In this document: piece after piece, positions 1,591 through 20,732 of the stretch
How the letters are laid out: every line of letters starts with the position of its first letter
How positions within the stretch are numbered: position 1 is the first letter of the stretch
Origin: Candidatus Caldarchaeum subterraneum
GTDB taxonomy: Archaea; Thermoproteota; Nitrososphaeria_A; Caldarchaeales; Caldarchaeaceae
Length of the DNA stretch: 24,000 nucleotides
Assembly (NCBI GenBank): GCA_937934305.1
Contig: CALHAG010000001.1
Coordinates: 88,659 to 112,658 of the forward strand
Direction: 5' to 3'
Notes under the pieces: generated by a model
What the model was told of the DNA's origin: nothing
The model's database searches: none
The model's input: only the letters and a program-made list of their open reading frames with translations
Program-made: the position numbers and the translations under genes

Positions 1591-3006
1591 ATGGGCTACA
1601 CGCTGTTTGAGAAGATTTGGAACAGTCATGCTCTTGCGGAGAGAGAGGATGGGCAGACGCTTCTCTACATCGACAGACATCTCACGCATGAGGTTACTTC
1701 GCCGCTTGCCTTTGAAGGGTTGAGAGCCGCGGGGCGTAGAGTGCGGAGGCCTGACCTTACATTCGCGGTGATGGACCACAACGTTCCAACGGGCGATAGA
1801 CTGGAGCCTGTCAAGGAGCCTATGTCGGCGGCTCAGATGCAGGCCCTCAGCCGCAACGCAAAAGAATTCGGCATCACCCTCTTCGACTACTTCAGCCCGT
1901 TTCAGGGCATCGTCCACGTTATTGGGCCCGAGCTGGGCCTAACCATCCCCGGTATCACGCTTGTCTGCGGCGACAGCCACACATCCACCCATGGCGCTTT
2001 CGGGGCACTTGCCTTCGGAATTGGGACAAGCGAAGGTGAACATGTTCTCGCCACGCAGACGCTTTGGCTGAAGAAGCCGAAGCAGATGAACATAAGGCTG
2101 ATGGGTAAACTCGGCGAAAACGTGACGGCGAAGGATGTTATCCTCTACATCATCAGGAAGCTCGGCACAGGTGGGTGCATAGGACACGTCGTCGAGTTCA
2201 CAGGCGATTATGTCAAAAGCATCGGCGTCGAGGAGAGGATGACGTTGACCAACATGTCCATCGAGGGCGGGGCGCGGACAGCCATCATAGAGCCCGATGA
2301 AAAAGTCTTCAACTTTCTCAGGGACGCGCCGTATAGCCCGAAGGGCCGTGAATGGGATGAGGCGATGGAGTATTGGCGGACGCTGAAAACCGACCCAGAC
2401 GCAAAATATGACACGGTCCACGAGTTCGACGTGTCCCGCATAGAGCCGCAGGTCACGTGGGGAACCAACCCCGCCATGACAGTCGGAATAACGGAGAACG
2501 TGCCTTCTCCCGACGACTTTGACGACCCATCCGATAGAAAAGCCGTTGAACGTGCTCTGCAGTACATGGGGCTGAAGCCGGGGATGAAGGTTTCGGACAT
2601 CAAGGTTGACACGGTGTTCATCGGCTCATGCACCAACGCCAGGCTGAGTGATTTGATTGATGTGGCGAGGCTTGTGAAGGGTAGGAAGAAAGCGGACGGC
2701 GTCAGGGTTCTCGTTGTGCCTGGTTCGCAGTTGACGAAGCGGAGAGCCGAGCGGATGGGGCTGCATAGAATATTCATGGAGGCTGGGTTTGAGTGGCGGA
2801 ACAGCGGATGCAGCATGTGCATCGCCATGAACGAGGATAGGCTGCGGCCCGGCGAGAGATGTCTCTCGACAAGCAACCGCAACTTCGAGAACAGGCAAGG
2901 CGTCGGAGGACGAACGCATCTAGCAAGCCCCCTCGTCGCAGCCGCTACAGCTTTGACGGGAAAAATCACAGACCCAAGACAGTTTCCACTACAGGACCTT
3001 GAATAA
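1591..3006 (+). CDS. leuC: 3-isopropylmalate dehydratase (aconitase-family) large subunit, bacterial long type
   Basis: Colinear, strong similarity to E. coli-type LeuC. Matching segments include LLYIDRHLTHEVTSPLAF, VMDHNVPT, GIVHVIGPE, VCGDSHTSTHGAFGALAFGIGTSEGEHVLATQTL, FIGSCTNARLSDL, GCSMCIAMN, STSNRNFENRQG and GGRTHLASP. The start is set at ATG 1591 (MGYTLFEKIW), not at track position 1531, which overlaps the ParB-like gene. Confidence 0.9.
   Translation: MGYTLFEKIWNSHALAEREDGQTLLYIDRHLTHEVTSPLAFEGLRAAGRRVRRPDLTFAVMDHNVPTGDRLEPVKEPMSAAQMQALSRNAKEFGITLFDYFSPFQGIVHVIGPELGLTIPGITLVCGDSHTSTHGAFGALAFGIGTSEGEHVLATQTLWLKKPKQMNIRLMGKLGENVTAKDVILYIIRKLGTGGCIGHVVEFTGDYVKSIGVEERMTLTNMSIEGGARTAIIEPDEKVFNFLRDAPYSPKGREWDEAMEYWRTLKTDPDAKYDTVHEFDVSRIEPQVTWGTNPAMTVGITENVPSPDDFDDPSDRKAVERALQYMGLKPGMKVSDIKVDTVFIGSCTNARLSDLIDVARLVKGRKKADGVRVLVVPGSQLTKRRAERMGLHRIFMEAGFEWRNSGCSMCIAMNEDRLRPGERCLSTSNRNFENRQGVGGRTHLASPLVAAATALTGKITDPRQFPLQDLE
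2947..2976 (+). repeat. Left copy of a perfect 30-bp direct repeat (acagctttgacgggaaaaatcacagaccca), inside the leuC 3' end
   Basis: Read directly from the sequence; identical to 6681-6710. Confidence 0.95.
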
Positions 3007-3050
3007 CCTCATACAGGACAAGCCAAGCAAGCCTCACACATATCAGGAAA

Positions 3051-3059
3051 CAATATAAG
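3051..3059 (+). promoter_or_regulatory. TATA-like box upstream of reverse gyrase
   Basis: caatataag lies about 30 nt upstream of the TTG start at 3088 in an otherwise A/C-rich spacer. Called by position only. Confidence 0.3.
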
Positions 3060-3087
3060 TTGACTTTGGAGTAGATGCCGGTTAGCG

Positions 3088-6000
3088 TTGAAGTCGATAT
3101 ATGTATCGCTCTGCCCAAACTGTGGCGGAGAAATAACCGATGAGGAGCTTGTTGGGCGAGGGGTTTGTAGCAGATGTGTTTTGCAGGATGGTCGGCTTAA
3201 GCCGGGAAAATACACTAAGGCTTTGGAGCTTGAGGAGGAATATAGAGCGTTCGCGGATTTTTTCAGCAGGGTCGTGGGCTCTCCTCCATGGTCTCTGCAG
3301 CGGACATGGGCTAAAAGAGCTCTCCTCGGAAGAAGCTTCTCAATAGTTTCTCCCACGGGAACGGGGAAGACAACCTTCTTCATAGCGATGGCCATTTACC
3401 AAGCATCTAAGGGGAAAAAATCCTACATAATCGTCCCCACAAGCCTCCTCGCACAACACATCCACGAAAGAACCTTATCGATGGCGGCCAAACATGGAGA
3501 AAAAGCAGCAAAAATCGCTGCATACTACTCTGGCATGAAGAAGAGCGAGGCTGAAGAGATGCTGCAGAAGATAAGGGATGGGGAGTTTGGCATCCTAGTC
3601 ACCACAGACCGTTTCCTCAACACACGTTTCGAGCTTCTGAGAGGAAAAAAGTTCTTCTACATTTTTGTTGATGATGTAGACTCTTTCCTCAAGTCACCGA
3701 GAAACATCGACAAAGTTCTTCTCTTAATGGGGTTTGAGGAAAAGGAGATCGAGAGACATCTAAAACTAGTCTCGGCTAGGTCTGGAGAAAGTGAGGCGGA
3801 GGAGTATGCTTCTAAAGAGATTGCGAGGCCTGACTCTGTGTTGCTTGTAGCCGGAGCCACTATGAAGGGCCGGAGAACCAAGAGAATTCGATTGTTCAGA
3901 CGTCTTCTAAACTTTGAGCCCGGAGGCTCAATAGAGTTTGTCAGAAACATCTCCAACATGTACCTGCACCAAAGCAAGAAGATGTGGGAACAGGTCGCGG
4001 AGCTGGTGAAGACACATGGAGGCGGATGTCTGATTTTTGTTCCGCAGACAGCGGGTGTCGAATCTGCTAAAGAGTTGGCAAAATTTCTGAACAGCCAGCG
4101 GATTAGTGCATATGCTTACGAGAAGATGGATACGAAGATGCTTAAGCGGTTTGAGTTGGGCGAGTATGATGTCTTGGTTGGTATCGCGAGTACGAGAAGC
4201 CCTCTAGCCAGAGGCATCGACTTGCCGGAGCGGATAAGATACGTGATTTTCGCGGGTGTTCCGAGGCGTGAGCTGAACGTGTCTTGGCGAGAGCACAGGC
4301 CCTCCATGTTGCTCAGCCTCATCCAAAATCTGTACTCGATACTTAGAGAGAAGAACGAGTCCGAACTGGTCCAGGTAATGGGTATGTTGAAGAAATGTGT
4401 CCCCACCGATAGGGAGGTGTTGGAGAGTGTTAGAGAGGGGCTTGAATCCTCGAAACAGCCCGAAGGATTCGCAGGATATGTTTACTCAGCTGTTACGAGA
4501 GCTCATCAACTCCTCAAAACATGCATCGGTGAGGAGGAGCTAAGACGTGTAGCGGAGAACCTCGACATGAAGATACGTGTGGACGAGAACGGTGTCTCCA
4601 TAATTCTCCCCGACATCGATGGATATGTGCAGGCGTCGGGCCGCTCCTCGAGGATGTTCGCGGGAGGCATAACCCGTGGAATATCCATCCTCATAGTCGA
4701 TGACGAGAAAGCTTTTAGAGGCATCATGAGGGCCCTCGAAACCATTTACGAAGAAACCTTCCAAGAATATAGTTTGGAGCATGCTAGAGAGGAGTTTAAG
4801 CAATGCGATAGGGATAGACAGTTCCTGCGTGAGATCAGAACAGGGTCGGCGAGCGTAGAGTCCCTAGATATTTTGAGGTCGTCGCTGATTATAGTTGAGT
4901 CGCCGACGAAGGCCCGCACGTTGGCCTATTTTTTCGGAAAGCCTGCTAGACGAGTTGTCGATGGACTGACTGTTTACGAGTCGGTTGGAGAAGGCTATGT
5001 CGCATGTCTCACCGCTTGTCAGGGACATTTGGTGGACATTACGACGAGCCACGGTTTCCATGGTGTCTGGATTCACGATGGAGAGTTTGTGCCGATGTAT
5101 GTGGATATTAGGAGATGTTCGAAGTGTGGGGAGCAGTTCACGGATAGCGAAGTGTGTCCCAACTGCGGCTCCGACAAATACTTCAGCAAGCTATCCATAG
5201 TTGATTCTCTGCGTAAACTTGCGCTCGAGTTTGACCATGTCTTCATCGCAACTGACCCTGATACGGAGGGTGAGAAGATTGGCTATGACCTCTATGTGAG
5301 TATTTGGCCGTTTAACAAGCGGATTGAGAGGCTTGAGCTTCATGAGATTACGAGGAAGGCTTTACGGGATGCGTTTAAGTCTCCGCGTAGTGTTTCGCTG
5401 CCGCTTGTCGAGGCACAGGTTGTGAGAAGAATCGAGGACAGATGGGTTGGCTTTGAGCTGAGCAGACGCCTCTGGGAGTTTTTCGGGGAAAAACATCTCT
5501 CGGCAGGCCGTGTCCAAACCCCTGTCCTCGGCTGGATAATCCAAAGGATGGAAGAGGCTAGGAAGAAGAAACTAGTCGCAAACATGACGTTTGAAGACGG
5601 CTCCGAACTCATGCTAGAAAATATCGAGGATGTTGACATGGTCAAGAAACTCTATGCCGAAGGCGCGTTGAACGTGGAGGTGGCTGATGTGAAGTATGTT
5701 GAGACGGTTGCCACAGCTGTCAAGCCCTATACAACCGATTCTCTTCTAAGAGATGCATCGATTTTTCTCAGGATGAGTGCTGCGGATGCGATGGATGCTG
5801 CCCAAACCCTTTTCGAGTCGGGTCTTATAACTTATCATAGAACGGGGGCGACATATGTCTCGTCGACGGGGTTATCGGTGGCTAGGAGTTATCTTGAGGA
5901 GAACTTTCCAGGGCTTTTTGTGGCGAGGCATCATGGCGAACCCGGTGCACATGAATGCATCAGGCCGACGAAACCGCTCTCGAGGAAGCAGCTCGAGCTT

Positions 6001-6615
6001 TATCTTCAGTCGGGTTTGATTAGAGTGCCGATGCGAATAGGTGATAGGGAGCTTATGCTCTACGACCTTGTGTTTAGACGTTTTATGGCTAGTCAGATGA
6101 AGGATGCGCTTGTGCGGAGACAGATGTGTAATTTGATGGTTCTAGGGAAAACCTATCGTGTAGAGAGGGTTGTTGAGGTTCTTGAGCCAGGGTTCCTCAA
6201 CCTCTACCAAACCATCAAGACTGTGAAGGCGCTTGAACCAGGTGTCCACAAGGTGCTGAACCTCCAGATCAAGAGTGTGCAGGCGGCGCCGTTTTTCCGC
6301 GAAGGCGACATCATCGCCTTGATGAGGGAGAGAGGCATAGGTAGGCCTAGCACATATGCACAGGTCCTCAACCTCCTCTACAAGAGGAGATACATTTTCA
6401 ACGACGGTGGAAGAGTGTTGGCGACGAAGCTGGGGAAGACAGTCTATAACTATCTCGTGTCGAATTTTGGCTCTTTTGTCTCCGAGACGTTGACGAAAAG
6501 GTTGGAGGAGCTGATGGAGAGCATAGAGTCTGGCAAAGTCAGTTATCAAGAAGTCCTAAAAGAACTCTACGGAGAAACTTCACAAATCTCGAAAACATCT
6601 GCAAAAGCTGCATAA
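3088..6615 (+). CDS. rgy: Reverse gyrase (helicase-like domain fused to a type IA topoisomerase), 1175 aa
   Basis: Contains an N-terminal Zn ribbon (CPNCGG...CSRC), helicase motif I (SPTGTGKTT) and motif II (VDDVDS). The topoisomerase part has a TOPRIM domain (IIVESPTKARTL, ATDPDTEGEKI), an internal Zn finger (CSKCGEQFTDSEVCPNCGS) and a catalytic-Tyr motif (ITYHRTGATYVS). Single uninterrupted ORF. Confidence 0.97.
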   Translation: MKSIYVSLCPNCGGEITDEELVGRGVCSRCVLQDGRLKPGKYTKALELEEEYRAFADFFSRVVGSPPWSLQRTWAKRALLGRSFSIVSPTGTGKTTFFIAMAIYQASKGKKSYIIVPTSLLAQHIHERTLSMAAKHGEKAAKIAAYYSGMKKSEAEEMLQKIRDGEFGILVTTDRFLNTRFELLRGKKFFYIFVDDVDSFLKSPRNIDKVLLLMGFEEKEIERHLKLVSARSGESEAEEYASKEIARPDSVLLVAGATMKGRRTKRIRLFRRLLNFEPGGSIEFVRNISNMYLHQSKKMWEQVAELVKTHGGGCLIFVPQTAGVESAKELAKFLNSQRISAYAYEKMDTKMLKRFELGEYDVLVGIASTRSPLARGIDLPERIRYVIFAGVPRRELNVSWREHRPSMLLSLIQNLYSILREKNESELVQVMGMLKKCVPTDREVLESVREGLESSKQPEGFAGYVYSAVTRAHQLLKTCIGEEELRRVAENLDMKIRVDENGVSIILPDIDGYVQASGRSSRMFAGGITRGISILIVDDEKAFRGIMRALETIYEETFQEYSLEHAREEFKQCDRDRQFLREIRTGSASVESLDILRSSLIIVESPTKARTLAYFFGKPARRVVDGLTVYESVGEGYVACLTACQGHLVDITTSHGFHGVWIHDGEFVPMYVDIRRCSKCGEQFTDSEVCPNCGSDKYFSKLSIVDSLRKLALEFDHVFIATDPDTEGEKIGYDLYVSIWPFNKRIERLELHEITRKALRDAFKSPRSVSLPLVEAQVVRRIEDRWVGFELSRRLWEFFGEKHLSAGRVQTPVLGWIIQRMEEARKKKLVANMTFEDGSELMLENIEDVDMVKKLYAEGALNVEVADVKYVETVATAVKPYTTDSLLRDASIFLRMSAADAMDAAQTLFESGLITYHRTGATYVSSTGLSVARSYLEENFPGLFVARHHGEPGAHECIRPTKPLSRKQLELYLQSGLIRVPMRIGDRELMLYDLVFRRFMASQMKDALVRRQMCNLMVLGKTYRVERVVEVLEPGFLNLYQTIKTVKALEPGVHKVLNLQIKSVQAAPFFREGDIIALMRERGIGRPSTYAQVLNLLYKRRYIFNDGGRVLATKLGKTVYNYLVSNFGSFVSETLTKRLEELMESIESGKVSYQEVLKELYGETSQISKTSAKAA

Positions 6616-6633
6616 ACTTGTTTGAAACAAACA

Positions 6634-6740
6634 AGGCGCCGGGTAGAAAGATATCTCGCAACCCCCTAATCGCAGTGGCCACAGCTTTGACGGGAAAAAT
6701 CACAGACCCACGGCAACACACTCTACAAGAACTCTTCTAA
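6634..6740 (+). pseudogene. Orphan duplicate of the leuC 3' end (last ~35 codons, no gene body)
   Basis: In-frame translation PGRKISRNPLIAVATALTGKITDPRQHTLQELF* aligns with the LeuC C-terminus GGRTHLASPLVAAATALTGKITDPRQFPLQDLE*. There is no upstream ORF or start; it begins 19 nt after the rgy stop. Confidence 0.75.
6681..6710 (+). repeat. Right copy of the perfect 30-bp direct repeat
   Basis: Identical to 2947-2976. The flanking bases differ on both sides (t/c on the left, a/c on the right). Confidence 0.95.
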
Positions 6741-6972
6741 CCCAATCTTTTTTCACCACATGGTTGTCTTCGGAGCAAAGCCACCGGACTCGAACCATTC
6801 TCCTCCACAGAGCGGACACTTCTTTGACCCGTGAGAGGTCTTGATGGGCTGAACCCTGTTACCTCAGAAAGGACATGGCTCAGAAGTTCTCCAGCTCACG
6901 AAAACAAGAGAAAAATCCACCAATAAGCTTTATCCATGCCCGGTCTGGATGTTTTCGATGGATGGTCCATGG

Positions 6973-6981
6973 TTAAATAAA
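6973..6981 (+). promoter_or_regulatory. TATA-like box upstream of the cation exchanger gene
   Basis: ttaaataaa lies 19-27 nt upstream of GTG 7000. Called by position only. Confidence 0.3.
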
Positions 6982-6999
6982 TGGTGAGGTGCAGGACCC

Positions 7000-7929
7000 G
7001 TGGCCGTGTTCCTTGATGTTGTTGCAGTTTTTGTGCTCTCCTGTCTAGGGTTGGCTGTGACGGGTTATCTTCTCGTGAGAGGCGCTGAGCTTCTCTCGGA
7101 GAAACGTGGAATCAGCCGGTTTCTCGTAGGCTTCATATTGCTCTCCGTCATCACCTCGTTGCCAGAGCTTTCCGTGGCTACTTTTTCGTCGCTGGCAGGA
7201 GTTGTCTACCTCTCGGTCGGAGATATTCTAGGCTCCAACGTGGTGAATGTAGCATTGGTCGCTGCTCTCTCCACCTTCTTTGTAACGGGCGTTGTATATG
7301 TGGGTCTGGATGTGCTCCGGGACTTGGCGGGCATTCTCTATTTTTCCTCCATCATACCTATTTTGATGATTTTTATTCCTGAGGTGGCTGTGGAGCTTGG
7401 AGTATTGTTGCTGGCTTTTTTCATGGTGTATATTTATCTCTCGTTTCGGTCGGCGCCTGCTAACGCTCGGGTTGCTGAGAAGGTTGGCGTCGGATATAAT
7501 GTGATTGTTTCAATGGTTGTTGTCGGAGGGGTGGGTGTGGTGGTCTCTGCCTATTTCTTGGTGGAGAGTGTGGAGGGCCTTGTGTTGTTGACGGGGTTGT
7601 CTGAGCTGGAGGTGGGTGCGAAGATTGTCTCTATATCGACGTCGGCGCCGGAGATTGCGACGACTCTTCTTCTCTCAAAGCGAGGTGTTTATGACATGGC
7701 TCTCGGAAACGCTGTCGGCTCCAACCTCACAAACGTAACTTTGATACTTGGAGCTCTTCTCATAATCTCGGGGCAGTCGCTTGTTTTCAGCCAGCATGTT
7801 TCCGTTGTTCTTTTCGTTCTGCTGGCGAGCTCGACTTTCTGGTTCTTTATCAGCAGAGGTGCTTTGAATAGGATGAGCGGTGTGCTTCTTTTACTGATTT
7901 ACCTGTTTTTCCTGACGGTGGCCAAGTAG
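7000..7929 (+). CDS. Ca2+/cation antiporter (CaCA, YrbG/NCX-like) membrane protein
   Basis: About 10 predicted TM helices and two alpha-repeat signatures: ITSLPELSV...GDILGSNVVNVAL, and STSAPEIATTL...GNAVGSNLTNVTLILG. Confidence 0.85.
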   Translation: MAVFLDVVAVFVLSCLGLAVTGYLLVRGAELLSEKRGISRFLVGFILLSVITSLPELSVATFSSLAGVVYLSVGDILGSNVVNVALVAALSTFFVTGVVYVGLDVLRDLAGILYFSSIIPILMIFIPEVAVELGVLLLAFFMVYIYLSFRSAPANARVAEKVGVGYNVIVSMVVVGGVGVVVSAYFLVESVEGLVLLTGLSELEVGAKIVSISTSAPEIATTLLLSKRGVYDMALGNAVGSNLTNVTLILGALLIISGQSLVFSQHVSVVLFVLLASSTFWFFISRGALNRMSGVLLLLIYLFFLTVAK

Positions 7930-8226
7930 CTCAGCATCGAGGATTTTGTTGTCTGATGTGACGACTTGCTCGAGTTTCTCCAGCAGGGTTTCCATGTATA
8001 TGAGGTATGCAAAGACTGTGGTGAACATCAACATTCAACTCAGCATCACACCCATCGCGTTCAATTTTCATTTGGGGCATCAGTGTGTGGTTTTCCCGTG
8101 CTTTTTGTGTTTTTATGTTGTTTTGTCGCCGAGTGTGTAATCGTCGCCATCTCTTCTTAATAGGCGTGTCCAAGTTCCATAACACTTTTTATGATGAGAT
8201 AAATGTTGGTGTTTGGCTGTTGGTTT

Positions 8227-8781
8227 ATGCTGCAGATTGGTGTGGGTTGTTCGAGTGACCGTGAGCCGTTGCCGGGTGCTGTTGAGAAGGCGCGGAGGTT
8301 TGCCGCGAGGTTGGGTGTTTACAGGGATGAGGTTGTTTTGCTGACGGGTGGCGACGGCGGCTTGATGCGTGTGGTGTGTGAAGAGTTTGTGCGGAGAGGT
8401 GGGATAACGGTGGGCGTCATCCCATACGAGGACGAGTTCATCGACAAAACTCATCCACGATACAATCCCTACAACACAATCGTCTTCCGCAGCGGACAAA
8501 CCTACCAAGCAAGAAGCATAGGCCTCGTCAGAAGCAGCGACAGCTTCGTCATCCTCGGCGGCGGCTCGGGAACAATCATCGAAGCACATCTCGCATACAT
8601 CTACCGCATCCCACTCATCATCCTCACCGAAACAGGCTATCCATCAGACATCCTCGCACAAATGCATCCCGACGGACACCTCGACCACCGAAAAATCAAC
8701 GCAGCCCACTACATCAACGACCCCGAAGAAGCAGCGGACAAAGCAGTCGCACTAGCACGACAAAAAACACAAAAGCTTTAA
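8227..8781 (+). CDS. TIGR00725 / LOG (lysine-decarboxylase-like) family protein
   Basis: Rossmann-like signatures: IGVGCSS...A..LG.......LLTGGDGGLMRVVCEEFVRRGGITVGVIP, and VILGGGSGTIIEAHLAY. The start is set at ATG 8227 (MLQIGVG), inside track ORF 8203..8781. Confidence 0.8.
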   Translation: MLQIGVGCSSDREPLPGAVEKARRFAARLGVYRDEVVLLTGGDGGLMRVVCEEFVRRGGITVGVIPYEDEFIDKTHPRYNPYNTIVFRSGQTYQARSIGLVRSSDSFVILGGGSGTIIEAHLAYIYRIPLIILTETGYPSDILAQMHPDGHLDHRKINAAHYINDPEEAADKAVALARQKTQKL

Positions 8782-8803
8782 CAAACCAAATAACAAAACA
8801 AAC

Positions 8804-9841
8804 ATGCAACATGAAACACAGATAGAGCAGCTGCTACACACTCCGCTCCAAGCAATCGAGGTCGGCGAAAAAACCATCGCCCAGCTCCTCGACCAAATGA
8901 AGCTAACAGGATTCCAGGGAAGAAACCTTGCACTCGCAGCCGAAACATGGGCGAAAGCCGCTCAAGCAAAAGACACAGTCATCATGCTCGGATACGCAGG
9001 CTCACTCAGCACAACTGGCCAGTGGAAAATCGTCAAATGGCTCGTCGAGAAAAGGTTTGTGGACGTTGTTGTGTCAACAGGGGCCAACATCTCAGAGGAC
9101 CTCATAGCCGCCATGGGCTACAACTACTACATAGGCACATCATACATCGACGACGACCTTCTCCGCCGCCTCCGCATCTACAGGTTCCACGACGTCTTCG
9201 TCAAGGAAGAAGACTACATCAAGATGGAGGAAATGATAGCCGACTTCATGCTGACACTCGACAACATGGAACCCATGTCCTCAGCCGAGTTCCTCCACCT
9301 CTTCGGCAAATGGCTAGACCAACGCAACATCCATGGAATAGTCCAAGCCGCATACAGAGCAGGAGTGCCCGTCTTCAGCCCAGCCATCGAAGACAGCGGA
9401 TACGGCGTCGCCTACATCATCAACAGACACCGCAAACCCGGCTACAAACTAATCCTCGACCACTTCAGAGACTATGAACAGCTCATCCGCATACGAGGCA
9501 GACATCGAGACAGCGCAGCAGTCTTCATCGGCGGAGGAGTTCCCAAAGACTTTATCCAATTATCAGCCGTCGCTGTCGACATTCTCGAGAAAGGAGACCC
9601 GCTCACCACTAGGCCCCATCGCTACGCCGTCCAGATAACCACCGACAACCCACACTGGGGAGGCTTATCTGGCGCAACACTCGAGGAGGGCAAGAGCTGG
9701 GGAAAGGAGACATCCGAGGGAGTAGGTGTCCAGTGCTTCTGCGACGCAACAATCGCACTACCGCTCATAGCCCACTACCTGCGCGAAAAAGTCGGCGAAA
9801 GAAAAAACAAGCCAGACCTCTCATGGGTCTTCTCTACCTGA
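8804..9841 (+). CDS. dys: Deoxyhypusine synthase
   Basis: Matching segments include MLGYAGSLSTTG, VVSTGANISEDL, FSPAIEDSGYG, GGGVPKDF and ITTDNPHWGGLSGATLEEGKSWGK. The length (345 aa) is typical. Confidence 0.93.
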   Translation: MQHETQIEQLLHTPLQAIEVGEKTIAQLLDQMKLTGFQGRNLALAAETWAKAAQAKDTVIMLGYAGSLSTTGQWKIVKWLVEKRFVDVVVSTGANISEDLIAAMGYNYYIGTSYIDDDLLRRLRIYRFHDVFVKEEDYIKMEEMIADFMLTLDNMEPMSSAEFLHLFGKWLDQRNIHGIVQAAYRAGVPVFSPAIEDSGYGVAYIINRHRKPGYKLILDHFRDYEQLIRIRGRHRDSAAVFIGGGVPKDFIQLSAVAVDILEKGDPLTTRPHRYAVQITTDNPHWGGLSGATLEEGKSWGKETSEGVGVQCFCDATIALPLIAHYLREKVGERKNKPDLSWVFST

Positions 9842-11186
9842 TGGCGAGAATCATCAAATCACCCACGTTCGTACCAGTTGGCCCCGTCAAAACCAGTCCA
9901 CCAACCCTGCTGAAAAACGTGTAGGAGTCATTGTCCTCGAGAAACTGCAGAGGGTCAATCCCCTCCCTTGCCGCGTTTCTGAGAGTCTGAGGAGCCGCGA
10001 CCGCCCCCGCCGCATCGGTTACACCGTCAACCCCATCCGTGCCAATCGATGCGAAAACAAACCTCGGAACATCACGTAAAAGATGCAGAGTGGCCAGCAC
10101 CAGCTCTTGGTTGCGGCCTCCTCTACCACGGCCTCGCACCGTCACGGTTGTCTCGCCCCCAGCCACCAGAGCGAAAGGCGGAGCATGTGGAACACCATGT
10201 TTCACCACATCACGGGCCACTGCGGCGAAAAGGCTCGCCACATTCCTCGCCTCCCCCACAACACCGCTCGTCAACGCAACAACACTGTAACCCCTTCGCC
10301 GCATCTCCACAGCGGCGGCCTTCACCGCATCAACACAGCCGCCGACAACCACGTTCACAACACGTCTAAAACACGGGTCCCCATGCTTAGGCGTCTCAGG
10401 ATACACCCCCTCAGCACCCCGACGCAGCCTTCTCCAAACATTCTCCGACACATCCACACCCCGTCTCCTCAAAACATCAAGAGCATCTCGAAAGGTTGTG
10501 GGATCCGGCGCAGTTGGCCCCGAGCCAATCACGTCGACACGGTCGCCGACAACGTCGGAGAGTATGAGGGAGAAGGCCCTGCAGCGGAGGTTTTTCGCAA
10601 GCCATCCACCCTTTAAAGCTGAGAGATGCTTCCGCACAGTGTTCAACTCATCTATAGAGGCACCGGCCTTCAGCAATGCAGAGGTTGTCTCAACTTTGTC
10701 CTGCAGCGAAACACCTTCCGCGGGCACAGCGGCCAATGCTGAAAAACCACCCGAGACAAGAACAAAGGCAAGCGAGTCTCCGCTGCATGATGAAGCCGTC
10801 TCGAGTATCCGCCGCCCCGCCTCCTCGCTCGAACTGTCTGGCAGCGGATGGCCTCCTTGTAGAACCTCGAGAGGTTTGAGACGCCGCTTCAGCCTGTATC
10901 CACGTGGAACAACAACCACACCCCTCACATCAAAGCCGTCGAGAAACCGCAGCATCTCAGCAGCCATCCCCTCCGCAGCCTTTCCGCCGCCAACTATGAC
11001 GAGGTCGCTGAACCGTCTCAGCTCAACCATCTTCCCACCTATTTGCAGACAATCACCACGACGCTTTATCACGCGACGAATCAAAGCACCCGGCTCAACA
11101 GCGGCCAACCCGCTCCTCAGCCCTGCCGCAACATCCTCTACACCACGCAGCCCCACTACACGCAACAACAAACATCCACCAAACAT
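9834..11186 (-). CDS. Glycerate 2-kinase / hydroxypyruvate reductase-like protein (DUF4147 + MOFRL domains)
   Basis: VIVGGGKAAEGMA in the N-terminal domain. The C-terminal MOFRL signature is LVAGGETTVTVRGRGRGGRNQELVLA ... ASIGTDGVDGVTDAAGA ... GPTGTNVGDL. Its end overlaps the dys end by 8 nt (convergent). Confidence 0.85.
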   Translation of the reverse strand: MFGGCLLLRVVGLRGVEDVAAGLRSGLAAVEPGALIRRVIKRRGDCLQIGGKMVELRRFSDLVIVGGGKAAEGMAAEMLRFLDGFDVRGVVVVPRGYRLKRRLKPLEVLQGGHPLPDSSSEEAGRRILETASSCSGDSLAFVLVSGGFSALAAVPAEGVSLQDKVETTSALLKAGASIDELNTVRKHLSALKGGWLAKNLRCRAFSLILSDVVGDRVDVIGSGPTAPDPTTFRDALDVLRRRGVDVSENVWRRLRRGAEGVYPETPKHGDPCFRRVVNVVVGGCVDAVKAAAVEMRRRGYSVVALTSGVVGEARNVASLFAAVARDVVKHGVPHAPPFALVAGGETTVTVRGRGRGGRNQELVLATLHLLRDVPRFVFASIGTDGVDGVTDAAGAVAAPQTLRNAAREGIDPLQFLEDNDSYTFFSRVGGLVLTGPTGTNVGDLMILAIR

Positions 11187-11244
11187 CCCTACAAGCTTAA
11201 CGGCGGGAAAAAGGGTTAAAGCAAACCCAAAAAAGAAAACGGTG

Positions 11245-11874
11245 ATGGATATTTTCTCGCAGGCTTTCTGGGAGGGGTTAACGGCGTATGGCTATTTCGG
11301 TGTCTTAGCGGCCAGTTTCCTCGGAAGCCTCCTCCCATTTGTCTCAGGCCCCTACATCCCTCCCATCATCATCGCCGTGATGGCTGGAAGGCTTGACCCT
11401 CTTCCAACGGCGTTGGCAAGCGCTACGGGAGCGGCGTCGGCGAAGCTTATTCTCTTCAGGTTCTTCAAAGGCGGCCGAGTACTGATAAGCGACGAGACAA
11501 GGAGAAGAATCGAGCCTCTCGAACGGCTTGTGGCACGGCATGGCTGGTTCGCCGTCCTCGCCGCAGCCGCCACACCCCTCCCCGACGACATCATCTACAT
11601 CCTCCTCGCCGTAGCCAACTACAGCAGCAAACTCTTCCTCCCCACAGTCTTCGCAGGCAAACTCCTCATCACAACCATCGCAGCCTACACAGCCCTCTAC
11701 TGGAGCACACTCGCATGCACAATAATCGAATGCACAGCAGGCCAGCTCAACCCTCTCCAAACAATCCTCCTCGCAGCAGCATCAGCCGCAGCAGCCATGA
11801 CACTCATCTACATAATAACAAGACTCGACTGGCAAAAAATCCTCACAAAACTAGGAGAACATACGCAACGCTAA
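11245..11874 (+). CDS. DedA/VTT-domain-like polytopic membrane protein
   Basis: Four to five hydrophobic helices. A re-entrant-loop-like motif (LLPFVSGPYIPPIIIAVMAG) and ATPLPDDIIYILLAV resemble the VTT/SNARE-associated family. The start is set at ATG 11245; the upstream part of track ORF 10498..11874 is antisense to the kinase gene. Confidence 0.55.
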   Translation: MDIFSQAFWEGLTAYGYFGVLAASFLGSLLPFVSGPYIPPIIIAVMAGRLDPLPTALASATGAASAKLILFRFFKGGRVLISDETRRRIEPLERLVARHGWFAVLAAAATPLPDDIIYILLAVANYSSKLFLPTVFAGKLLITTIAAYTALYWSTLACTIIECTAGQLNPLQTILLAAASAAAAMTLIYIITRLDWQKILTKLGEHTQR

Positions 11875-11898
11875 AATCTCGCAACAAATACTTCCTCC

Positions 11899-12180
11899 GT
11901 GCCTCACAGGCTTGAGCTTTTCATCTCAGACTGTCCTCTCTGCCGAAAGACACGCGCCATGATTGAGCTGGGAAAATGCGCCGGCTGCAGCTTCACCGTT
12001 CACGACCTCTCCAAAAACTTCAACGCCGTTGAAGAGCTTGTGAAAAAGTATCAAATACGCTCCGTTCCCACGCTCATCATAGACGGGAAAATAAAAATCG
12101 AGGGCGTTCCAACATTCACCTTCATATGCGACGAAAACCTCTATCGCATCCTTGAGGAGAAATATGCCTCCAAACCATAA
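11899..12180 (+). CDS. Thioredoxin-fold (glutaredoxin-like) small protein with a CPLC active site
   Basis: LELFISDCPLCRK ... IRSVPTLIIDGK fits the thioredoxin-fold pattern of CxxC followed by a cis-Pro (VP) loop. GTG start. Confidence 0.7.
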   Translation: MPHRLELFISDCPLCRKTRAMIELGKCAGCSFTVHDLSKNFNAVEELVKKYQIRSVPTLIIDGKIKIEGVPTFTFICDENLYRILEEKYASKP

Positions 12181-12242
12181 GCCGCATGTTCAAAACATCT
12201 TACGAGGTTAGCCATTTTTCGGTAAAGGCTTAAGAGGTTGAT

Positions 12243-13220
12243 GTGAGCAGGGTGTTTGGGACGCTGTTGGACACGGGTTCTTCACAGTTTGTGCTGAGTA
12301 GCATGAGGCCGGTCACTTGGGAGGATTATCGCCGCTATGTGGCTGAGAAAGGCTATGTCGAGGTGGAGGATGTCAGGATAGAGATAGGTAAACCACATAA
12401 AATCACTTCCTACAGCCCACCCGCATCATACAGTCTCGAGACCACAACGGTGTGGAGTTTTCCAGACCGCGGCGACTGGGCCACACACTCCGGCGACTAC
12501 AGGGGAAACTGGAGCCCCTATGTCCCAAGAAACCTCATTCTAAAATACACTAAGCCCGGGGAGCTTGTGCTTGACCAGATGTGCGGCTCGGGAACCACGC
12601 TGGTTGAGGCAAAACTATTGGGAAGAAACGCGATAGGCGTCGACATCAACTATGAAGCATGCATACTCACGCTGGACAGGCTCAATTTCGAATTCCATCC
12701 ACTGGATGAACAGCGGGAACCGGTGATAAAGGTGTATCACGGCGATGCGGCAAAACTCAACGTCATAGAAGATGAGAGTGTAGACTTGATCGCCACACAT
12801 CCACCCTATTGGAACATCATCCCATATTCCCAGAAAAGACCCGAAGGCGACCTTTCAGCATACAGAAAACTCGAAGATTATCTGGGAAAAATGATGCAGA
12901 TAGCCCGTGAATCCTACCGTGTTCTGAAACCGGGGCGATACTGTGCAATACTCATCGGAGACACGCGAAAACACAAACACTACGTGCCTATCTCCACTTA
13001 CGTGATGCTGAAATTCTTGCAAACGGGATTTGTTCTGGCGGAGGATATAATCAAGCTGCAGCACAAAATGAAGACTACGCGTGAAAAATGGGGTGGAAAA
13101 AATTTTGAACAGTATGGTTTCCATAAAATAGCCCATGAACATCTTTACGTTTTCAGAAAGCCGGGAAACGAGGAAGAACGCGGCAGATTGTCGTTGAGCA
13201 GCTGGTTGACGAAGATTTGA
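12243..13220 (+). CDS. DNA (N6-adenine or N4-cytosine) methyltransferase with permuted motif order
   Basis: The AdoMet motif I (LDQMCGSGTTLVEAKLLGRNAIGVDIN, 12573-12599 core) precedes a motif IV variant (LIATHPPYW; HPPY at 12798-12809). It is followed by ...YRVLKPGRYCAILIGD, as in N6_N4 methylases. Confidence 0.8.
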   Translation: MSRVFGTLLDTGSSQFVLSSMRPVTWEDYRRYVAEKGYVEVEDVRIEIGKPHKITSYSPPASYSLETTTVWSFPDRGDWATHSGDYRGNWSPYVPRNLILKYTKPGELVLDQMCGSGTTLVEAKLLGRNAIGVDINYEACILTLDRLNFEFHPLDEQREPVIKVYHGDAAKLNVIEDESVDLIATHPPYWNIIPYSQKRPEGDLSAYRKLEDYLGKMMQIARESYRVLKPGRYCAILIGDTRKHKHYVPISTYVMLKFLQTGFVLAEDIIKLQHKMKTTREKWGGKNFEQYGFHKIAHEHLYVFRKPGNEEERGRLSLSSWLTKI

Positions 13221-13816
13221 CCGAGCTGTCGACCGGCGAATATTTTGGCAGAGGTAGGAATAGAAGGAGAATACTCGAGGTAATCAGGCTCAGCAACGGA
13301 TGGATACTGCTCAAAACCGAAAACAGCAAATCTAAACATGATTTCAAGGTGAGAACGGTTTACCAGCTCAGGCCTCGAATAAGGTCATATACACCTAAGC
13401 ATGCACACTTCGCCATAGATTTCTACGGCAAGTTATGCGCTGACAAGGCGAAAGCCATGCAGGTCCTAAAAGCTATTGTGGAGGTTTGGCAAGGGGCGGA
13501 CATCGCAACCGTTGTCGAAAGGTTTAGACATGCCGTTAAAGATCTTCCAGGATATGATTTGGAGTATATTCTCTATGCTTTGGCATGGATTTTCCGGCAA
13601 GAAGATGTCAATTTCGCTGGAAGGCCTGAGAGCAGGCAGCGTGAGCTAGATGAGACGCTAAACCGTCTAGGCTTCAAGGTGCCTAAAGACAGGTTGGGAA
13701 GCCAACTCGCCCTAGCGCTTCTCTGCAACATAGCAAATGGAATGCATCCCGTAGACGCGCTCCTAAGAGCCAACCTCGACGTTCTACCCATCAAAAGAGG
13801 AAAAGGGAAGGTGTGA
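13217..13816 (+). CDS. Hypothetical protein (199 aa); candidate restriction endonuclease or specificity partner of the methyltransferase
   Basis: The ORF starts at a TTG that overlaps the methyltransferase stop by 4 nt (TTGA). No catalytic motif was recognised, so the function is inferred only from coupling to the methyltransferase. The start codon is uncertain (alternative GTG at 13349). Confidence 0.5.
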   Translation: MTELSTGEYFGRGRNRRRILEVIRLSNGWILLKTENSKSKHDFKVRTVYQLRPRIRSYTPKHAHFAIDFYGKLCADKAKAMQVLKAIVEVWQGADIATVVERFRHAVKDLPGYDLEYILYALAWIFRQEDVNFAGRPESRQRELDETLNRLGFKVPKDRLGSQLALALLCNIANGMHPVDALLRANLDVLPIKRGKGKV

Positions 13817-13936
13817 AAATGCTTTGGAATTGAGAGTGTTGCTTCAGTTGCTGCACACGTGTCAGTGGAAAAGGTTTCGACATCATTCTACCCGAAACCG
13901 GCATCCTCTTCAAGCCTTTCAAAGCAGCATCAAACA

Positions 13937-14021
13937 TGCGGGGGGTGGGATTTGAACCCACGAACCCCTGCGGGAGCAGGTCTTGAGCCTGCCGCCGTTG
14001 ACCAGGCTTGGCTACCCCCGC
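13937..14021 (-). tRNA. tRNA-Leu (anticodon CAA), no encoded CCA
   Basis: The minus strand reads GCGGGGG-TA-GCC-AAGCCTGGTCAAC-GGC-G-GCAGG-CTCAAGA-CCTGC-TCCCGCAGGGGTTC-GTGGG-TTCAAAT-CCCAC-CCCCCGC-A. This gives a 7-bp acceptor stem, 5-bp anticodon stem, a loop with CAA, a long variable arm (class II) and a canonical T-loop. Confidence 0.93.
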
Positions 14022-14179
14022 CTAGACTGTTTTAAGGTGTTGTTTGTTTTTAGGCTTTTTCGCGTGGTCAGCGACGTAGAATAGCATATTGATGGTGTGG
14101 AAAAGCATAGAGTTTTTCGCTGTGTGGTTGGAATGTTCGCTGCATTCTTTTGCTGTAATTAGTTAAGGCTTATATCCTG

Positions 14180-14187
14180 CATATAAT
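14180..14187 (+). promoter_or_regulatory. TATA-like box upstream of the tusA-like gene
   Basis: catataat lies 21-28 nt upstream of ATG 14208. Called by position only. Confidence 0.3.
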
Positions 14188-14207
14188 TTGTTTAGACGGT
14201 GGCTTGA

Positions 14208-14456
14208 ATGGAGATGGCTAAACCTGTTTTGACGGTCGATGTTAGGGGGGCGATGTGCCCGTGGCCTGTGCTCAAGACCCGTGAAGCGGTTCAGCGGATA
14301 AACGTGGGCGAGGTGGTGGAGGTGTTGGCCACTGACCCTGCTTCGAAACCCGACCTCGAGGCATGGGCCCGCAAAACAGGAAACCGCATCCTCTCAGTGG
14401 AAGAAACCGGCACAGACCCCGTTGTCTACAGGTTTTTGATTGAGAGGGTGAAGTAG
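14208..14456 (+). CDS. TusA/SirA-family sulfur carrier protein
   Basis: LTVDVRGAMCPWPVLKTREAV contains the family's C-P-x-P active-site motif. The size (82 aa) is typical. Confidence 0.85.
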   Translation: MEMAKPVLTVDVRGAMCPWPVLKTREAVQRINVGEVVEVLATDPASKPDLEAWARKTGNRILSVEETGTDPVVYRFLIERVK

Positions 14457-14879
14457 ATGAGTGAGGAGAAGACGCGGCTAGTTATTGTGGCGAGCCGGGG
14501 AACCGCTGACGGGCTGTATCCCGCGTTGATACTTGCGACAACCGCTGTCGCACAGGGTAAGGAGGCCGCGGTCTACTTCACGTTCGGCGGCATGAAGCTT
14601 TTGACCAAACAGATGGCTGAGACGATCAAGCCGTCGGTCGACTTGGGCGTCAGCAAAGAGCAGCTGGAGCAGCTTCTCGCAAAAGGCGGAATGCCCAGCC
14701 TCCTCGACATGCTGAAGATGGCGAAGCAGAGCGGTGTAAAGGTTTATGCATGCTCGCCAACCATGAACCTCTTCGGACTTAAGAAGGAAGATTTGGTTGA
14801 TGTGGTCGACGACATCATAGGCGCGTCAACCTTCCTCGAGATAGCGTCGGACCCGAAGACGCTCGCACTCTTCATCTAG
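14457..14879 (+). CDS. DsrE/DsrF-like family protein (COG2210-type)
   Basis: LVIVASRGTADGLYPALILATTAVAQGKEAAVYFTFGGMKLL ... GVKVYACSPTMNLFG ... GASTFLE. Its start directly abuts the tusA-like stop (TAGATG), which is the usual TusA-DsrE pairing. Confidence 0.8.
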   Translation: MSEEKTRLVIVASRGTADGLYPALILATTAVAQGKEAAVYFTFGGMKLLTKQMAETIKPSVDLGVSKEQLEQLLAKGGMPSLLDMLKMAKQSGVKVYACSPTMNLFGLKKEDLVDVVDDIIGASTFLEIASDPKTLALFI

Positions 14880-15320
14880 CTACTCCAACACCGTGAACGT
14901 CGCGGTCAACACACGCTTCTCACCGCCAACATCCACCTCTTTCACAAGCCTGTAGTCACCAGCCTCAACATCCATCGGTAACTCAACCTTTTTGCTGAAT
15001 GATTCGCCAGGCTCCAGGCTGTAGTAGATGAGTATCCACACCCGGTCTTTCATCCACTCAACCGACACCCATTCGCCGTCTTGTTTTTTCTGGATGTCGT
15101 AGGGTTCGCCGAAGCCGATGGTCTCCGGTGTCTTGTTTATGACGGTGTATGTAAGGGTTCGCTGACCCCTGTAAAGCTCTGTTTTATCCAAGACGAGAAA
15201 AACCTCCTTGACAGGTGGAGCGGGGCCAATAGGCTGTGGCTCCATATTCATAGCCAGTATCACCAGAGCAGAGACCGCAAAAGCCGCCGCCAAAGCCAAC
15301 ACAATCAACGCCGTCCTCAT
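14880..15320 (-). CDS. Signal-anchored or secreted hypothetical protein (probable small beta-sandwich)
   Basis: An N-terminal hydrophobic segment (MRTALIVLALAAAFAVSALVILAM) is followed by a beta-rich sequence. It lies 5 nt downstream of the SRPBCC-membrane gene on the same strand. Confidence 0.7.
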   Translation of the reverse strand: MRTALIVLALAAAFAVSALVILAMNMEPQPIGPAPPVKEVFLVLDKTELYRGQRTLTYTVINKTPETIGFGEPYDIQKKQDGEWVSVEWMKDRVWILIYYSLEPGESFSKKVELPMDVEAGDYRLVKEVDVGGEKRVLTATFTVLE

Positions 15321-15325
15321 GGCTT

Positions 15326-16315
15326 TTACTTGTCTCCCGATGCTTTATTTCTAATGTCTAGAACATTATTTCGGAGGGCTTTGCGGGCTTTTGCTATGCA
15401 TCCTGCTTTGGGGCTGAATATGGATGTGAATATTATGTTTGCTATTGCGATGAGTAGGAGTATTTGGGCTGCGAGGCTGTTGGGGTTGCTGCTGAGCATT
15501 ATGATTGGGACTGTGAGGGGGAAGAGCATGGACGCGATGGGGCCTGCGGCATACATGGCTGCGTAGCCGCGTGGCGATGCTCGGGTGTTGGCGCGGTCTA
15601 TTTTGATGCCGAGGGCTACTGGAAGTGTTTTGAATGGTTTTGGCAGTATGTTGAGGCGGACGATGTTGCTGAGGCCGATGTAGTAGTTGCTGAACCTTAT
15701 GCCTGCGAGTTTTCCGACAACGTAGTGGGCTAGGTCGTGTGTGAAGAACCATAGGAGAAGAAATGAGATGAGGCCCGTGACGAGTCTGCCTCCCGGTATC
15801 TGGAGGGGCTGGAGCCATAGCAGTATGTAGGCGGCTGCTGTGCCGAGGACGGATATCAGGTTTCCTGCTGCGAGGCTGATTTTGAAGGGGTCTTTGTAAT
15901 CTGGTTTTTCACCTGCTCCGAGGCTGTGTTTGATAGCTTCATGTCGGTAGGTGAGTATTTTTTTGAAGAACCTTCCCGCGAAGGGATTGCTTGACTCGAG
16001 AACCATGTCCTCGACTATTTTTGTGCCGCCGTCGGCTGGTGTGGTGATGATGGTGTGGTAGAGTTTTCCGAATGGGAAGTCGAGTGTTTCGTGGTATTGC
16101 TCAGTGGTGGAGCGTTCGATGATGCGGAAACGTGTCTGATAGCGTTGGCCGAGGAGACGGAATGAGACCGTGTAAACATCCTTATCCCATGAGACAAGCT
16201 TCATCCCAAGCTCCATGGGCCAAACCTTTCCCATGTTCTCGACAGTGCGGAAAAAACCGTAAACCTCCTCAACCGGCCGAGGCACAACATACTCAAAACG
16301 AAAAACCCACTTCAC
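15326..16315 (-). CDS. Fusion protein: N-terminal SRPBCC/START-like ligand-binding domain plus a C-terminal polytopic membrane domain with an HDLAH (zincin-like HExxH variant) motif
   Basis: The N-terminal ~135 aa resemble the polyketide-cyclase/SRPBCC fold (F.F.YVVPRPVEEVYGFF...). The C-terminal half has about 4-5 TM helices. FFTHDLAHYVVGKLAGI (HDLAH at 15725-15739) and YAAGPIASMLF resemble the M50/M50B site-2-protease motifs HExxH and AGP. Confidence 0.75.
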   Translation of the reverse strand: MKWVFRFEYVVPRPVEEVYGFFRTVENMGKVWPMELGMKLVSWDKDVYTVSFRLLGQRYQTRFRIIERSTTEQYHETLDFPFGKLYHTIITTPADGGTKIVEDMVLESSNPFAGRFFKKILTYRHEAIKHSLGAGEKPDYKDPFKISLAAGNLISVLGTAAAYILLWLQPLQIPGGRLVTGLISFLLLWFFTHDLAHYVVGKLAGIRFSNYYIGLSNIVRLNILPKPFKTLPVALGIKIDRANTRASPRGYAAMYAAGPIASMLFPLTVPIIMLSSNPNSLAAQILLLIAIANIIFTSIFSPKAGCIAKARKALRNNVLDIRNKASGDK

Positions 16316-16396
16316 AACCCGCCAAACACCACCTCACCACATAAACTTACCCCCTTAACAAACAGTCGTAAAACAGAAGCCACCTCCAACAAATCC

Positions 16397-16414
16397 AAAT
16401 AAAAAAGATATTAA
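16397..16414 (+). promoter_or_regulatory. A/T-rich TATA-like element upstream of csx1
   Basis: aaataaaaaagatattaa ends about 23 nt upstream of GTG 16437. It sits in the 121-nt divergent intergenic region. Confidence 0.35.
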
Positions 16415-16436
16415 CAATCCATGCATTCACGACAGT

Positions 16437-17765: not shown

Positions 17766-17779
17766 TTTGTGGATGGTCT

Positions 17780-18370: not shown

Positions 18371-18371
18371 A

Positions 18372-19397: not shown

Positions 19398-19423
19398 GCA
19401 GCGGTTAAATCTGTTGCCTGATT

Positions 19424-20710: not shown

Positions 20711-20732
20711 GGCTCAGCGGCTATGGTGAGAC

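Follow-up and report, generated by a model that had tools for sequence, protein, structure and literature searches.

The window analyzed here, a 24-kb stretch of DNA from a hot-spring archaeon closely related to Candidatus Caldarchaeum subterraneum (the window species), carries a reverse gyrase gene (rgy) between leuC and a leuC-like stretch (the fragment) located 3′ of rgy. Both leuC ends contain an identical 30-nt stretch, the core (ACAGCTTTGACGGGAAAAATCACAGACCCA, at 2947-2976 and 6681-6710), and the flanking duplication consists of reciprocally chimeric copies: the functional leuC ends in a tail that appears to have arrived with the insert, and the ancestral leuC tail appears to have been displaced to a position downstream of rgy. 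The locus is probably the fixed, ancient scar of a single recombination at the leuC core and not an active element.

Reverse gyrase is the one gene that tracks life at very high temperature, and its history has been drawn on in debates over how hot early life was. To our knowledge, claims that rgy has moved between lineages rest almost entirely on gene trees; Brochier-Armanet and Forterre reportedly inferred its horizontal transfer from phylogeny in 2007. Transfer was also inferred from trees by Catchpole and Forterre in 2019 (PMC6878951), and a text search of that reverse gyrase phylogeny paper found no mention of plasmids or mobile elements. At the locus described here, the junctions of one rgy move are still legible in the precise insertion of a single gene, the exchange of the leuC tail and the displacement of the original one, and the locus offers a datable, testable example of rgy replacement or acquisition.

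Reverse gyrase is inserted between two leuC ends

The gene leuC, encoding the large subunit of 3-isopropylmalate dehydratase, occupies positions 1591-3006 of the plus strand (Pfam Aconitase, E = 3e-173). Its mechanically called open reading frame (ORF) starts at 1531; the annotated starts of relatives align at 1591, and the 471-codon frame aligns with the leuC genes of two relatives (loci L021 and L023). The left, attL-like core copy (2947-2976, plus strand) lies inside leuC, where it encodes TALTGKITDP, and is followed by a tail reading RQFPLQDLE* (2977-3006, plus strand), the tail that would have come with the insert. A spacer that holds the rgy promoter (3007-3087, plus strand) separates leuC from rgy (3088-6615, plus strand), which starts with TTG and encodes a type 1 reverse gyrase of 1175 aa. 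Its Pfam domains (zf_Rg, DEAD, Helicase_C, Toprim and Topoisom_bac) correspond to the definition of a reverse gyrase, namely, an N-terminal zinc finger and an SF2 helicase fused to a Toprim/type IA topoisomerase. The spacer contains the conserved block GGAAACAATATAAGTTGA at 3046-3063, and a TATA-like sequence (AATATAAG, at 3052-3059) lies inside this block. The block is conserved upstream of type 1 rgy in loci L002 to L007; since it is common to related rgy upstream regions, the promoter moved together with rgy.

Downstream of rgy follow a decayed leuC-like segment (6616-6680, plus strand; homology clear from about 6634 and possible from 6616), the right, attR-like core copy (6681-6710, plus strand) and the displaced leuC tail, which reads RQHTLQELF* (6711-6740, plus strand). 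Single-nucleotide indels shift the frame locally in the decayed segment, most of which is deleted or rearranged in C. subterraneum. The insert contains only the 30-nt substitute tail, the promoter spacer, rgy and the leuC-like stretch, and the non-rgy sequence between the repeats amounts to 81 nt upstream and about 19 nt downstream of the gene. In the C. subterraneum type, about 195 extra nucleotides are present between the leuC stop and the rgy promoter, just after CCTCAT (L020, 11437-11637; about 3013 in the window). This stretch has no similarity to any other sequence compared and may be either what is left of an element or an insertion of later date.

A first-pass annotation of the window had reported the repeat as 30 identical nucleotides within only partly similar flanks, and realignment of both copies confirmed this. 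No more than these two copies of the core were found in the window, even when three mismatches were allowed (expected from shuffled sequences, 0). Without gaps, the repeat extends over 81 nt (2928-3008 versus 6662-6742) with 62 matches (77% identity), and a gapped alignment carries the similarity back to about 6618-6634, just past the rgy stop codon (6613-6615). Outside the core, 32 of 51 flank positions were identical (63%), with matches at 6 of the 17 third codon positions. When the 62 matches were permuted over the 81 columns, a run of at least 30 was obtained with P = 0.0006. The translations given for the two leuC ends were also correct, and the second copy has an in-frame TAA and no gene body, as described: it holds only a 40-codon ORF (TTG at 6618 to TAA at 6740). 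An 8-nt perfect palindrome (GTGGCCAC, at 6675-6682) straddles the junction of the decayed leuC-like stretch with the right core copy; in the left copy, this place reads GCCGCTAC.

That rgy is the sole gene between the repeats and is equipped with a TATA-like box was likewise borne out, and the gene is complete. Our scans agreed with the first-pass annotation on the lack of mobility genes, too: the scanned ORFs of the window contained neither an integrase nor a transposase domain, and no terminal inverted repeats pair the insert ends. A transposon or insertion sequence was rejected on account of the missing inverted repeats and transposase domain.

The functional leuC carries a substitute tail

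To describe relatives, we refer to the amino acid identity of their LeuC to that of the window. The comparison covered the window species from many samples (L001 and L026-L031; about 100%), the C. subterraneum type (L020 and L043-L045; 97%), a sister Caldarchaeum sp. (L021, L022 and L035; 95%, or 86.5% at the nucleotide level), more distant Caldarchaeum spp. (the 88% group; L023-L025; about 88%), a further lineage (the 81% group; L033 and L034; 81%) and other genera (various loci; about 73% or less).

The LeuC of the sister species, which lacks rgy at this locus, ends in TALTGKITDPRQYTLQELF (tail RQYTLQELF; L021, L035 and P0005). The window fragment matches this end, with TALTGKITDPRQHTLQELF (tail RQHTLQELF), whereas the functional window LeuC ends in RQFPLQDLE*. 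Compared with the sister leuC, the fragment was identical at 42 of 64 positions upstream of the core, 28 of 30 within the core and 26 of 30 in the tail; the corresponding values for the functional window leuC were 56/64, 28/30 and 19/30 (84/94 for upstream and core together). The change in similarity along the fragment (upstream versus core plus tail) and that along the functional gene (upstream plus core versus tail) gave p = 0.0012 and p = 0.0036, respectively, in Fisher tests that treat sites as independent. The 26/30 match of the fragment tail corresponds to the genome-wide level of divergence from the sister species, and 8 of its 9 amino acids agree with the sister LeuC tail. The C. subterraneum fragment keeps TAC (Tyr) at the variable tail codon, like the sister species. 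The substitute tail and the fragment tail agree at only 16 of 30 nucleotides.

Relative to the sister tail, the functional tail has thus changed at 11 of 30 positions and the pseudogene tail at 4 of 30, the opposite of what in situ evolution would produce. Because the pseudogene tail is nearer to the functional tail of the sister species than the functional window tail is, the latter must have been replaced; this argument is stronger than the Fisher tests. The substitute tail has the same length and stop position and resembles the tails RQFELQDLA and RQYELQDLE.. of other Caldarchaeum LeuCs. It is clearly a leuC tail, and the incoming DNA would therefore have held a real Caldarchaeum-type leuC 3′ end. 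The two copies are reciprocal chimeras, one composed of native body, core and a probably foreign tail and the other of a diverged leuC-like stretch, core and native tail. No mosaic tract was evident near the 3′ end of the leuC body.

Decay of the second copy was not uniform, as the first-pass annotation had argued. The fragment differs from the sister leuC by 34% upstream of the core and by 10% in core plus tail, and together with the permutation result for the run of matches (P = 0.0006) this led us to reject the uniform decay of a tandem or segmental duplication.

The insertion is restricted to two species and predates their split

The order leuC-rgy-fragment was present in every contig seen of the window species (7 loci among the matches listed) and of C. 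subterraneum and absent elsewhere. In the sister species, a CRISPR array and type I-A cas genes lie within about 60 nt 3′ of leuC. In the 88% group, small ORFs and genes for a RecA-like ATPase and an AAA ATPase come next; in the 81% group, it is an M50 peptidase gene, and in another genus unrelated genes follow, with leuD 2.5 kb away (L032). The leuC loci of five further lineages each have a different right flank. A search for integrases 3′ of leuC in the other lineages (Pfam and PHROGs) yielded no more than RecA-like/AAA ATPases, an M50 peptidase and ORFs without a known function, and among 46 loci scanned, no further leuC-end fragment was found outside the two rgy-bearing species. The Caldarchaeum leuC 3′ flank is a rearrangement hot spot. 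In the Caldarchaeum loci examined, leuD (small subunit) was never located directly 3′ of leuC.

The window and C. subterraneum are about 90-92% identical at the DNA level, and their divergence at fourfold sites is about 0.20 (leuC, 0.20; rgy, 0.22; DHS, 0.16; ParB, 0.25). Since the synonymous divergence of rgy (0.22) is close to that of leuC (0.20), both genes were co-inherited and the insertion predates the split of the two species. Fourfold-site divergence between the window and the sister species is about 0.36-0.41, and by parsimony the insertion postdates the split from that species.

The position of rgy next to leuC is derived. In a neighbor-joining (NJ) tree, the window rgy belongs to a type 1 clade, whose members in seven loci of other genera share the neighborhood FAA hydrolase, aldehyde dehydrogenase(-), ilvD, leuB, diphthamide synthase, NUDIX(-), rgy, TtuA-like(-) and nitroreductase(-). 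Loci of this NUDIX|TtuA type bracket the window clade on both sides in the tree, and the leuC-adjacent position is therefore the derived one. All non-Caldarchaeum type 1 rgy neighborhoods represent this one other conserved locus, and none of them offered an empty site. The window rgy is 90.8% identical to that of C. subterraneum, and all other homologues are at 71% or less; no homologue was found between 71% and 90%, a range in which LeuC and DHS do have many Caldarchaeum homologues. Compared with DHS, rgy seemed 8-12 points closer to other genera than expected; this value depends on a single marker gene and was not relied on.

The rgy of the sister species is of type 2 (L041, 10001-13537; also L040 and L042; P0164/P0433, labelled Candidatus Caldarchaeum sp.). 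With 50% identity to the window gene, it is flanked by an EMG1-like gene and by TauE. The Caldarchaeales have two deep clades of rgy paralogues, of which each sibling species retains another. Among the rgy homologues found, none was a type 2 gene of the window species or C. subterraneum, and the C. subterraneum genome paper by Nunoura et al. reports a single rgy (PMC3082918). Acquisition of type 1 followed by loss of type 2 is favored, as it takes fewer events and fits the foreign tail; an ancestral presence of both types with differential loss is less parsimonious. The NJ tree by itself does not distinguish between the two histories.

A model for recombination at the leuC core

In the model that we prefer, the event would have taken place in the ancestor shared by the window species and C. 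subterraneum, where DNA of roughly 3.7 kb would have recombined inside the conserved leuC stretch of about 30 bp that encodes TALTGKITDP. On the incoming DNA, a type 1 rgy with its own promoter would have come after a diverged copy of the final ~125 nt of a Caldarchaeum-type leuC. The topology would be that of a Campbell-type insertion, that is, a single crossover with a circle of the order leuC-like ~65 nt, core, tail, spacer and rgy. An equivalent route would be a double crossover with a donor that already had the order leuC-rgy-fragment, the leuC-derived flanks serving as homology arms. By either route, leuC would have kept its own body and gained the incoming tail RQFPLQDLE*, and the original tail RQHTLQELF* would have been shifted 3′ of rgy and joined to the incoming, already decayed leuC-like stretch. 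In the present state, leuC and rgy are both intact, rgy is presumably read from the promoter that came along, and the fragment would be a noncoding leftover, probably in the 3′ untranslated region of rgy.

We lean toward homology-driven recombination at the 30-bp identity over a tyrosine recombinase event with an integrase that was lost or acted in trans, because leuC similarity exists on both sides of the core and a recombinase gene is missing. This similarity reaches about 50-65 nt upstream of the core; capture of a chromosomal leuC 3′ end, and with it homologous recombination, would account for this extent no less well than an att site would.

Several observations weigh against this scar model. 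The informative segments are only 30-64 nt long, and the Fisher p values are optimistic because decay includes clustered changes and indels. The composition of rgy is only mildly atypical: its GC content is somewhat low (0.50, against roughly 0.46-0.58 for the other window genes), and its codon usage is not distinct. The position of rgy in the NJ tree is also compatible with vertical descent and relocation. No close match to the substitute tail was found among the available leuC tails (best, 19-20 of 30), and no donor molecule was found in the 46 loci and two metagenome scans, the closest other type 1 rgy being 71% identical. The attP-type junction (which would read ...GCAGTGGCC + core + AGACAGTTT...) had no matches in assembled metagenome contigs. 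No relative examined has an empty site with the right flank of the window, even when a sensitive alignment of the downstream flank was included; we attribute the lack of a clean empty site to the rearrangement of the leuC right flank in every lineage. The only match to the attB-type junction (which would read ...GCAGCCGCT + core + CGGCAACAC...) in metagenome contigs was the CRISPR-flanked sister type, and the core itself had no matches in viral contigs.

The conservation of the fragment core is a further difficulty. The window species and C. subterraneum have the same right core copy (30/30), where about six changes would be expected at 20% neutral divergence (0.8^30 = 0.001). Meanwhile, the sequence left of the fragment core was deleted or rearranged in C. 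subterraneum and the tail there is shorter by 14 nt. A dead scar leaves this conservation unexplained. Possible causes are gene conversion by leuC, a constraint from the T5 tract with which the core faces the convergent minus-strand ORF, continued use as a recombination site, or chance. The core pair was identical at 30 of 30 positions in all window-species contigs and at 28 of 30 in all C. subterraneum-type contigs, where leuC reads ATA and CCG, so that the perfect core of the first-pass annotation holds for the window species and not for its sibling. Both differences between the C. subterraneum leuC core and its own fragment core are synonymous and lie on the leuC side. In the window, the leuC core reads ATC, as does the fragment, whereas the leuC of C. 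subterraneum, the sister species and the 88% group (L023) has ATA; the 30/30 identity may therefore be partly secondary.

Alternative explanations

The first-pass annotation had interpreted the repeats as attL and attR of a site-specific integration. Under this explanation, which we consider unlikely overall, an element with an attP resembling a leuC 3′ end, a core of 30-44 bp and rgy as cargo was integrated by an integrase, and its other genes were later deleted or the recombinase acted in trans (e.g., from CalSub-E1). It accounts well for the attL/attR-like chimeras and for a substitute tail that restores frame and stop, which are the classical signature of such events. 3′-end gene targets are common in related archaea according to a survey of integrated elements (PMC6563490), the perfectly conserved fragment core has a sharp left edge and scrambled flanks, and the ~195 extra nucleotides of C. 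subterraneum could be what is left of an element. The reciprocal chimeras agree with this reading. Against it, the insert and the scanned ORFs of the window hold no integrase, and non-rgy sequence between the repeats is limited to the 81 nt and about 19 nt. Moreover, leuC similarity that continues 50-65 nt upstream of the core is more than an att site needs, searches of metagenome and viral contigs gave no attP form, and no second cargo lies between leuC repeats in other Caldarchaeum loci.

An in situ event seems less likely still. Here, rgy would have entered the leuC 3′ region by insertion or translocation and duplicated ~125 nt of the target; decay of the downstream copy would have followed, with short-patch gene conversion keeping the core. 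The frameshifting single-nucleotide indels and nonconservative changes upstream of the fragment core are typical of neutral decay, the fragment of C. subterraneum shows how fast large indels accrue, and the ATC shared by the leuC and fragment cores of the window, versus ATA in the leuC of C. subterraneum, L021 and L023, hints at conversion. However, this sequence of events explains neither the greater similarity of the pseudogene tail (26/30) than of the functional tail (19/30) to the sister species nor the presence of a homologous yet different functional tail of the same length. Conversion from leuC could not have kept a native tail that leuC has lost, and the cores of C. subterraneum differ at two synonymous sites on the leuC side.

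It is improbable, in our estimate, that the core (30-44 bp) is a live site at which a minimal rgy cassette without an integrase can be moved between Caldarchaeum genomes by a trans-acting recombinase or by the adjacent provirus or gene transfer agent (GTA)-like system. If true, this would explain both the unchanged fragment core and the different rgy paralogues in sister species. Even less credit can be given to a cassette that is still mobile today and excises and reintegrates at leuC by means of a host or provirus recombinase. The 30-bp direct repeats flank the cassette, the fragment core is conserved past neutral expectation and a conserved head-tail provirus/GTA-like cluster (PMC6563490) is located directly upstream of leuC. 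Against this, a single arrangement was found in all contigs seen of the window species (7 loci among the matches listed) and the C. subterraneum type, rgy and leuC were co-inherited (synonymous divergence of 0.22 versus 0.20), and the assembled contigs contained no circle junction and no precise empty allele. Of the rgy cassette mobility suggested by the first-pass annotation, the footprint of a past insertion and the derived, lineage-specific location of rgy were substantiated, but a mobile cassette was not.

The notion that the fragment derives from a second aconitase-family paralogue (e.g., hacA) and has nothing to do with the arrival of rgy is effectively refuted: several aconitase-family large subunits are common in archaea, and a 908-aa aconitase is encoded elsewhere in a sister genome, but the best match of the fragment was the orthologous sister leuC (81.7% over 120 nt; 8 of 9 aa in the tail), TGKITDPRQ plus the 9-aa tail was specific to Caldarchaeum-type LeuC among 120 homologues, and a revival would take an intact paralogue ending in ...IAVATALTGKITDPRQHTLQELF. 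The first-pass annotation had named three findings that would speak against its own reading, namely, the same arrangement in all relatives, a hacA-type paralogue as the source of the fragment and a generic repeat; none of the three was encountered.

Comparison with known systems

The locus resembles the integrated elements of thaumarchaea, 14 of 68 of which reside in 3′-distal parts of protein genes and replace the stop codon, according to a 2019 survey (PMC6563490). Direct repeats are present at both ends, one of them inside the 3′ end of a host gene, and the gene receives its tail and stop codon from the incoming DNA, which displaces the original end. The survey deals with the same broad archaeal clade, and C. 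subterraneum was among the genomes screened; in the parts of its main text that were searched, only CalSub-Pro and CalSub-E1 are named for this species (PMC6563490). Unlike those elements, the rgy insert has no integrase, replication genes or other genes of an element, and its cargo is a single housekeeping-type gene. Its repeat is a diverged leuC end of ~105-125 nt around a 30-nt identity, compared with short att sites (median, 17 bp, in that survey; PMC6563490), and no empty site with both flanks matching was found. The insert thus has the repeats and the tail replacement of att-flanked elements but falls outside this family in that it lacks an integrase and that no excised form was found in assembled contigs.

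As in Campbell-type integration, the insert is flanked by a homologous direct duplication with reciprocally chimeric copies, for which no recombinase is needed. Unlike in the typical case, the crossover identity is only about 30 bp and lies inside flanks that are 53-66% identical. The circular intermediate is hypothetical here, and the event was a natural one in an uncultured archaeon and not a laboratory construct.

Sulfolobales have two reverse gyrase paralogues, TopR1 and TopR2. The Caldarchaeales are similar in that two deep rgy lineages (about 50% identity) occur in one archaeal order; unlike in the TopR1/TopR2 case, the sister species here keep one rgy each and not the same one. As in transfers of rgy inferred from trees, the distribution among close relatives is patchy and paralogue swapping and the locus is derived, as would fit transfer or replacement, but in contrast to the tree-only studies, a physical junction structure is available at the insertion site. 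No leuC-rgy insertion is described in the consulted passages of the C. subterraneum genome paper (PMC3082918). What appears to be new is a cargo-only rgy insertion with legible junctions and a sister species that holds the other paralogue; the mechanism is not new in kind, and the event appears to be old and fixed.

Genomic surroundings of the locus

Immediately 3′ of the fragment lies a T6 tract (6748-6753, plus strand), read from the sequence and also present in C. subterraneum, which may act as the terminator of rgy transcription. An unannotated ORF of 48 codons (6753-6899, minus strand) encodes a small zinc ribbon with four Cys residues (CPFCG...CPLCGG). It is convergent with the fragment and belongs to the native right flank. 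In all window-species contigs, the ORF has an in-frame TGA at its second Cys codon (6864-6866), and it is intact in the C. subterraneum type (L020, L043 and L044). The region 6744-6932 is 92.6% conserved relative to C. subterraneum, compared with ~80% at neutral sites, and no known RNA family was found by Rfam at 6400-7200. The adjoining Na+/Ca2+ exchanger gene (7000-7929) and its flanks (6932-8207) are absent in C. subterraneum, which has about 48 nt instead, a 1.27-kb indel between the sibling species next to the insertion site.

Farther downstream, the window shares a SLOG-DHS-MOFRL-VTT-Trx-methylase block (8203-21547) with L036, L038 and L039, and each lineage has another left neighbor of the block: the sister species has Rieske, the 88% group has DUF429(-) and the window has the leuC fragment. 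The DUF429-glyoxalase-permease-MarR genes of the window are inverted relative to L036. The differing neighbors and this inversion indicate that the leuC 3′ flank has been a breakpoint of several inversions.

The CRISPR array 3′ of leuC in the sister species has a repeat of approximately CTTTCAATTCCCTCTTGCGGGATCAG and is accompanied by type I-A cas genes. The 102-aa ORF called there, inside the array, is likely to be spurious. The same repeat makes up a second array, which is located beside Csa1 and adjoins the SLOG-DHS block. These observations concern L021 (~11490-14190), L035 (3150-4113), L038/L039 (~15280-15640) and L023 (13070-13240). The window contains an orphan Csx1 gene (16437-17765) and no copy of the sister CRISPR repeat.

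Upstream of leuC, a head-tail provirus-like cluster (window, 1-1546; also L020-L031 and L043-L044) ends directly at the leuC start. It encodes a tail tube protein, an S8 peptidase, an HK97 capsid protein, an S78 protease, a portal protein, an NTPase of 482-485 aa and a ParB_N-HTH protein, and it was present in every Caldarchaeum genome examined (leuC nucleotide identity, 77-100%); L024 is without the ~8.6-kb capsid-to-ParB module. This cluster is CalSub-Pro, whose borders are described as unknown and whose GTA-like nature was suspected by Krupovic et al. in 2019 (PMC6563490). Its conservation at one locus across species supports domestication of CalSub-Pro. Over the first ~240 nt of leuC (1591-1830), the distances among the window, C. 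subterraneum and the sister species are about equal (0.87-0.95), whereas in mid-leuC the identity between the window and C. subterraneum is 0.93-0.97, versus 0.81-0.88 to the sister species. The equidistance at the 5′ end may reflect a recombination tract near the ParB-leuC boundary.

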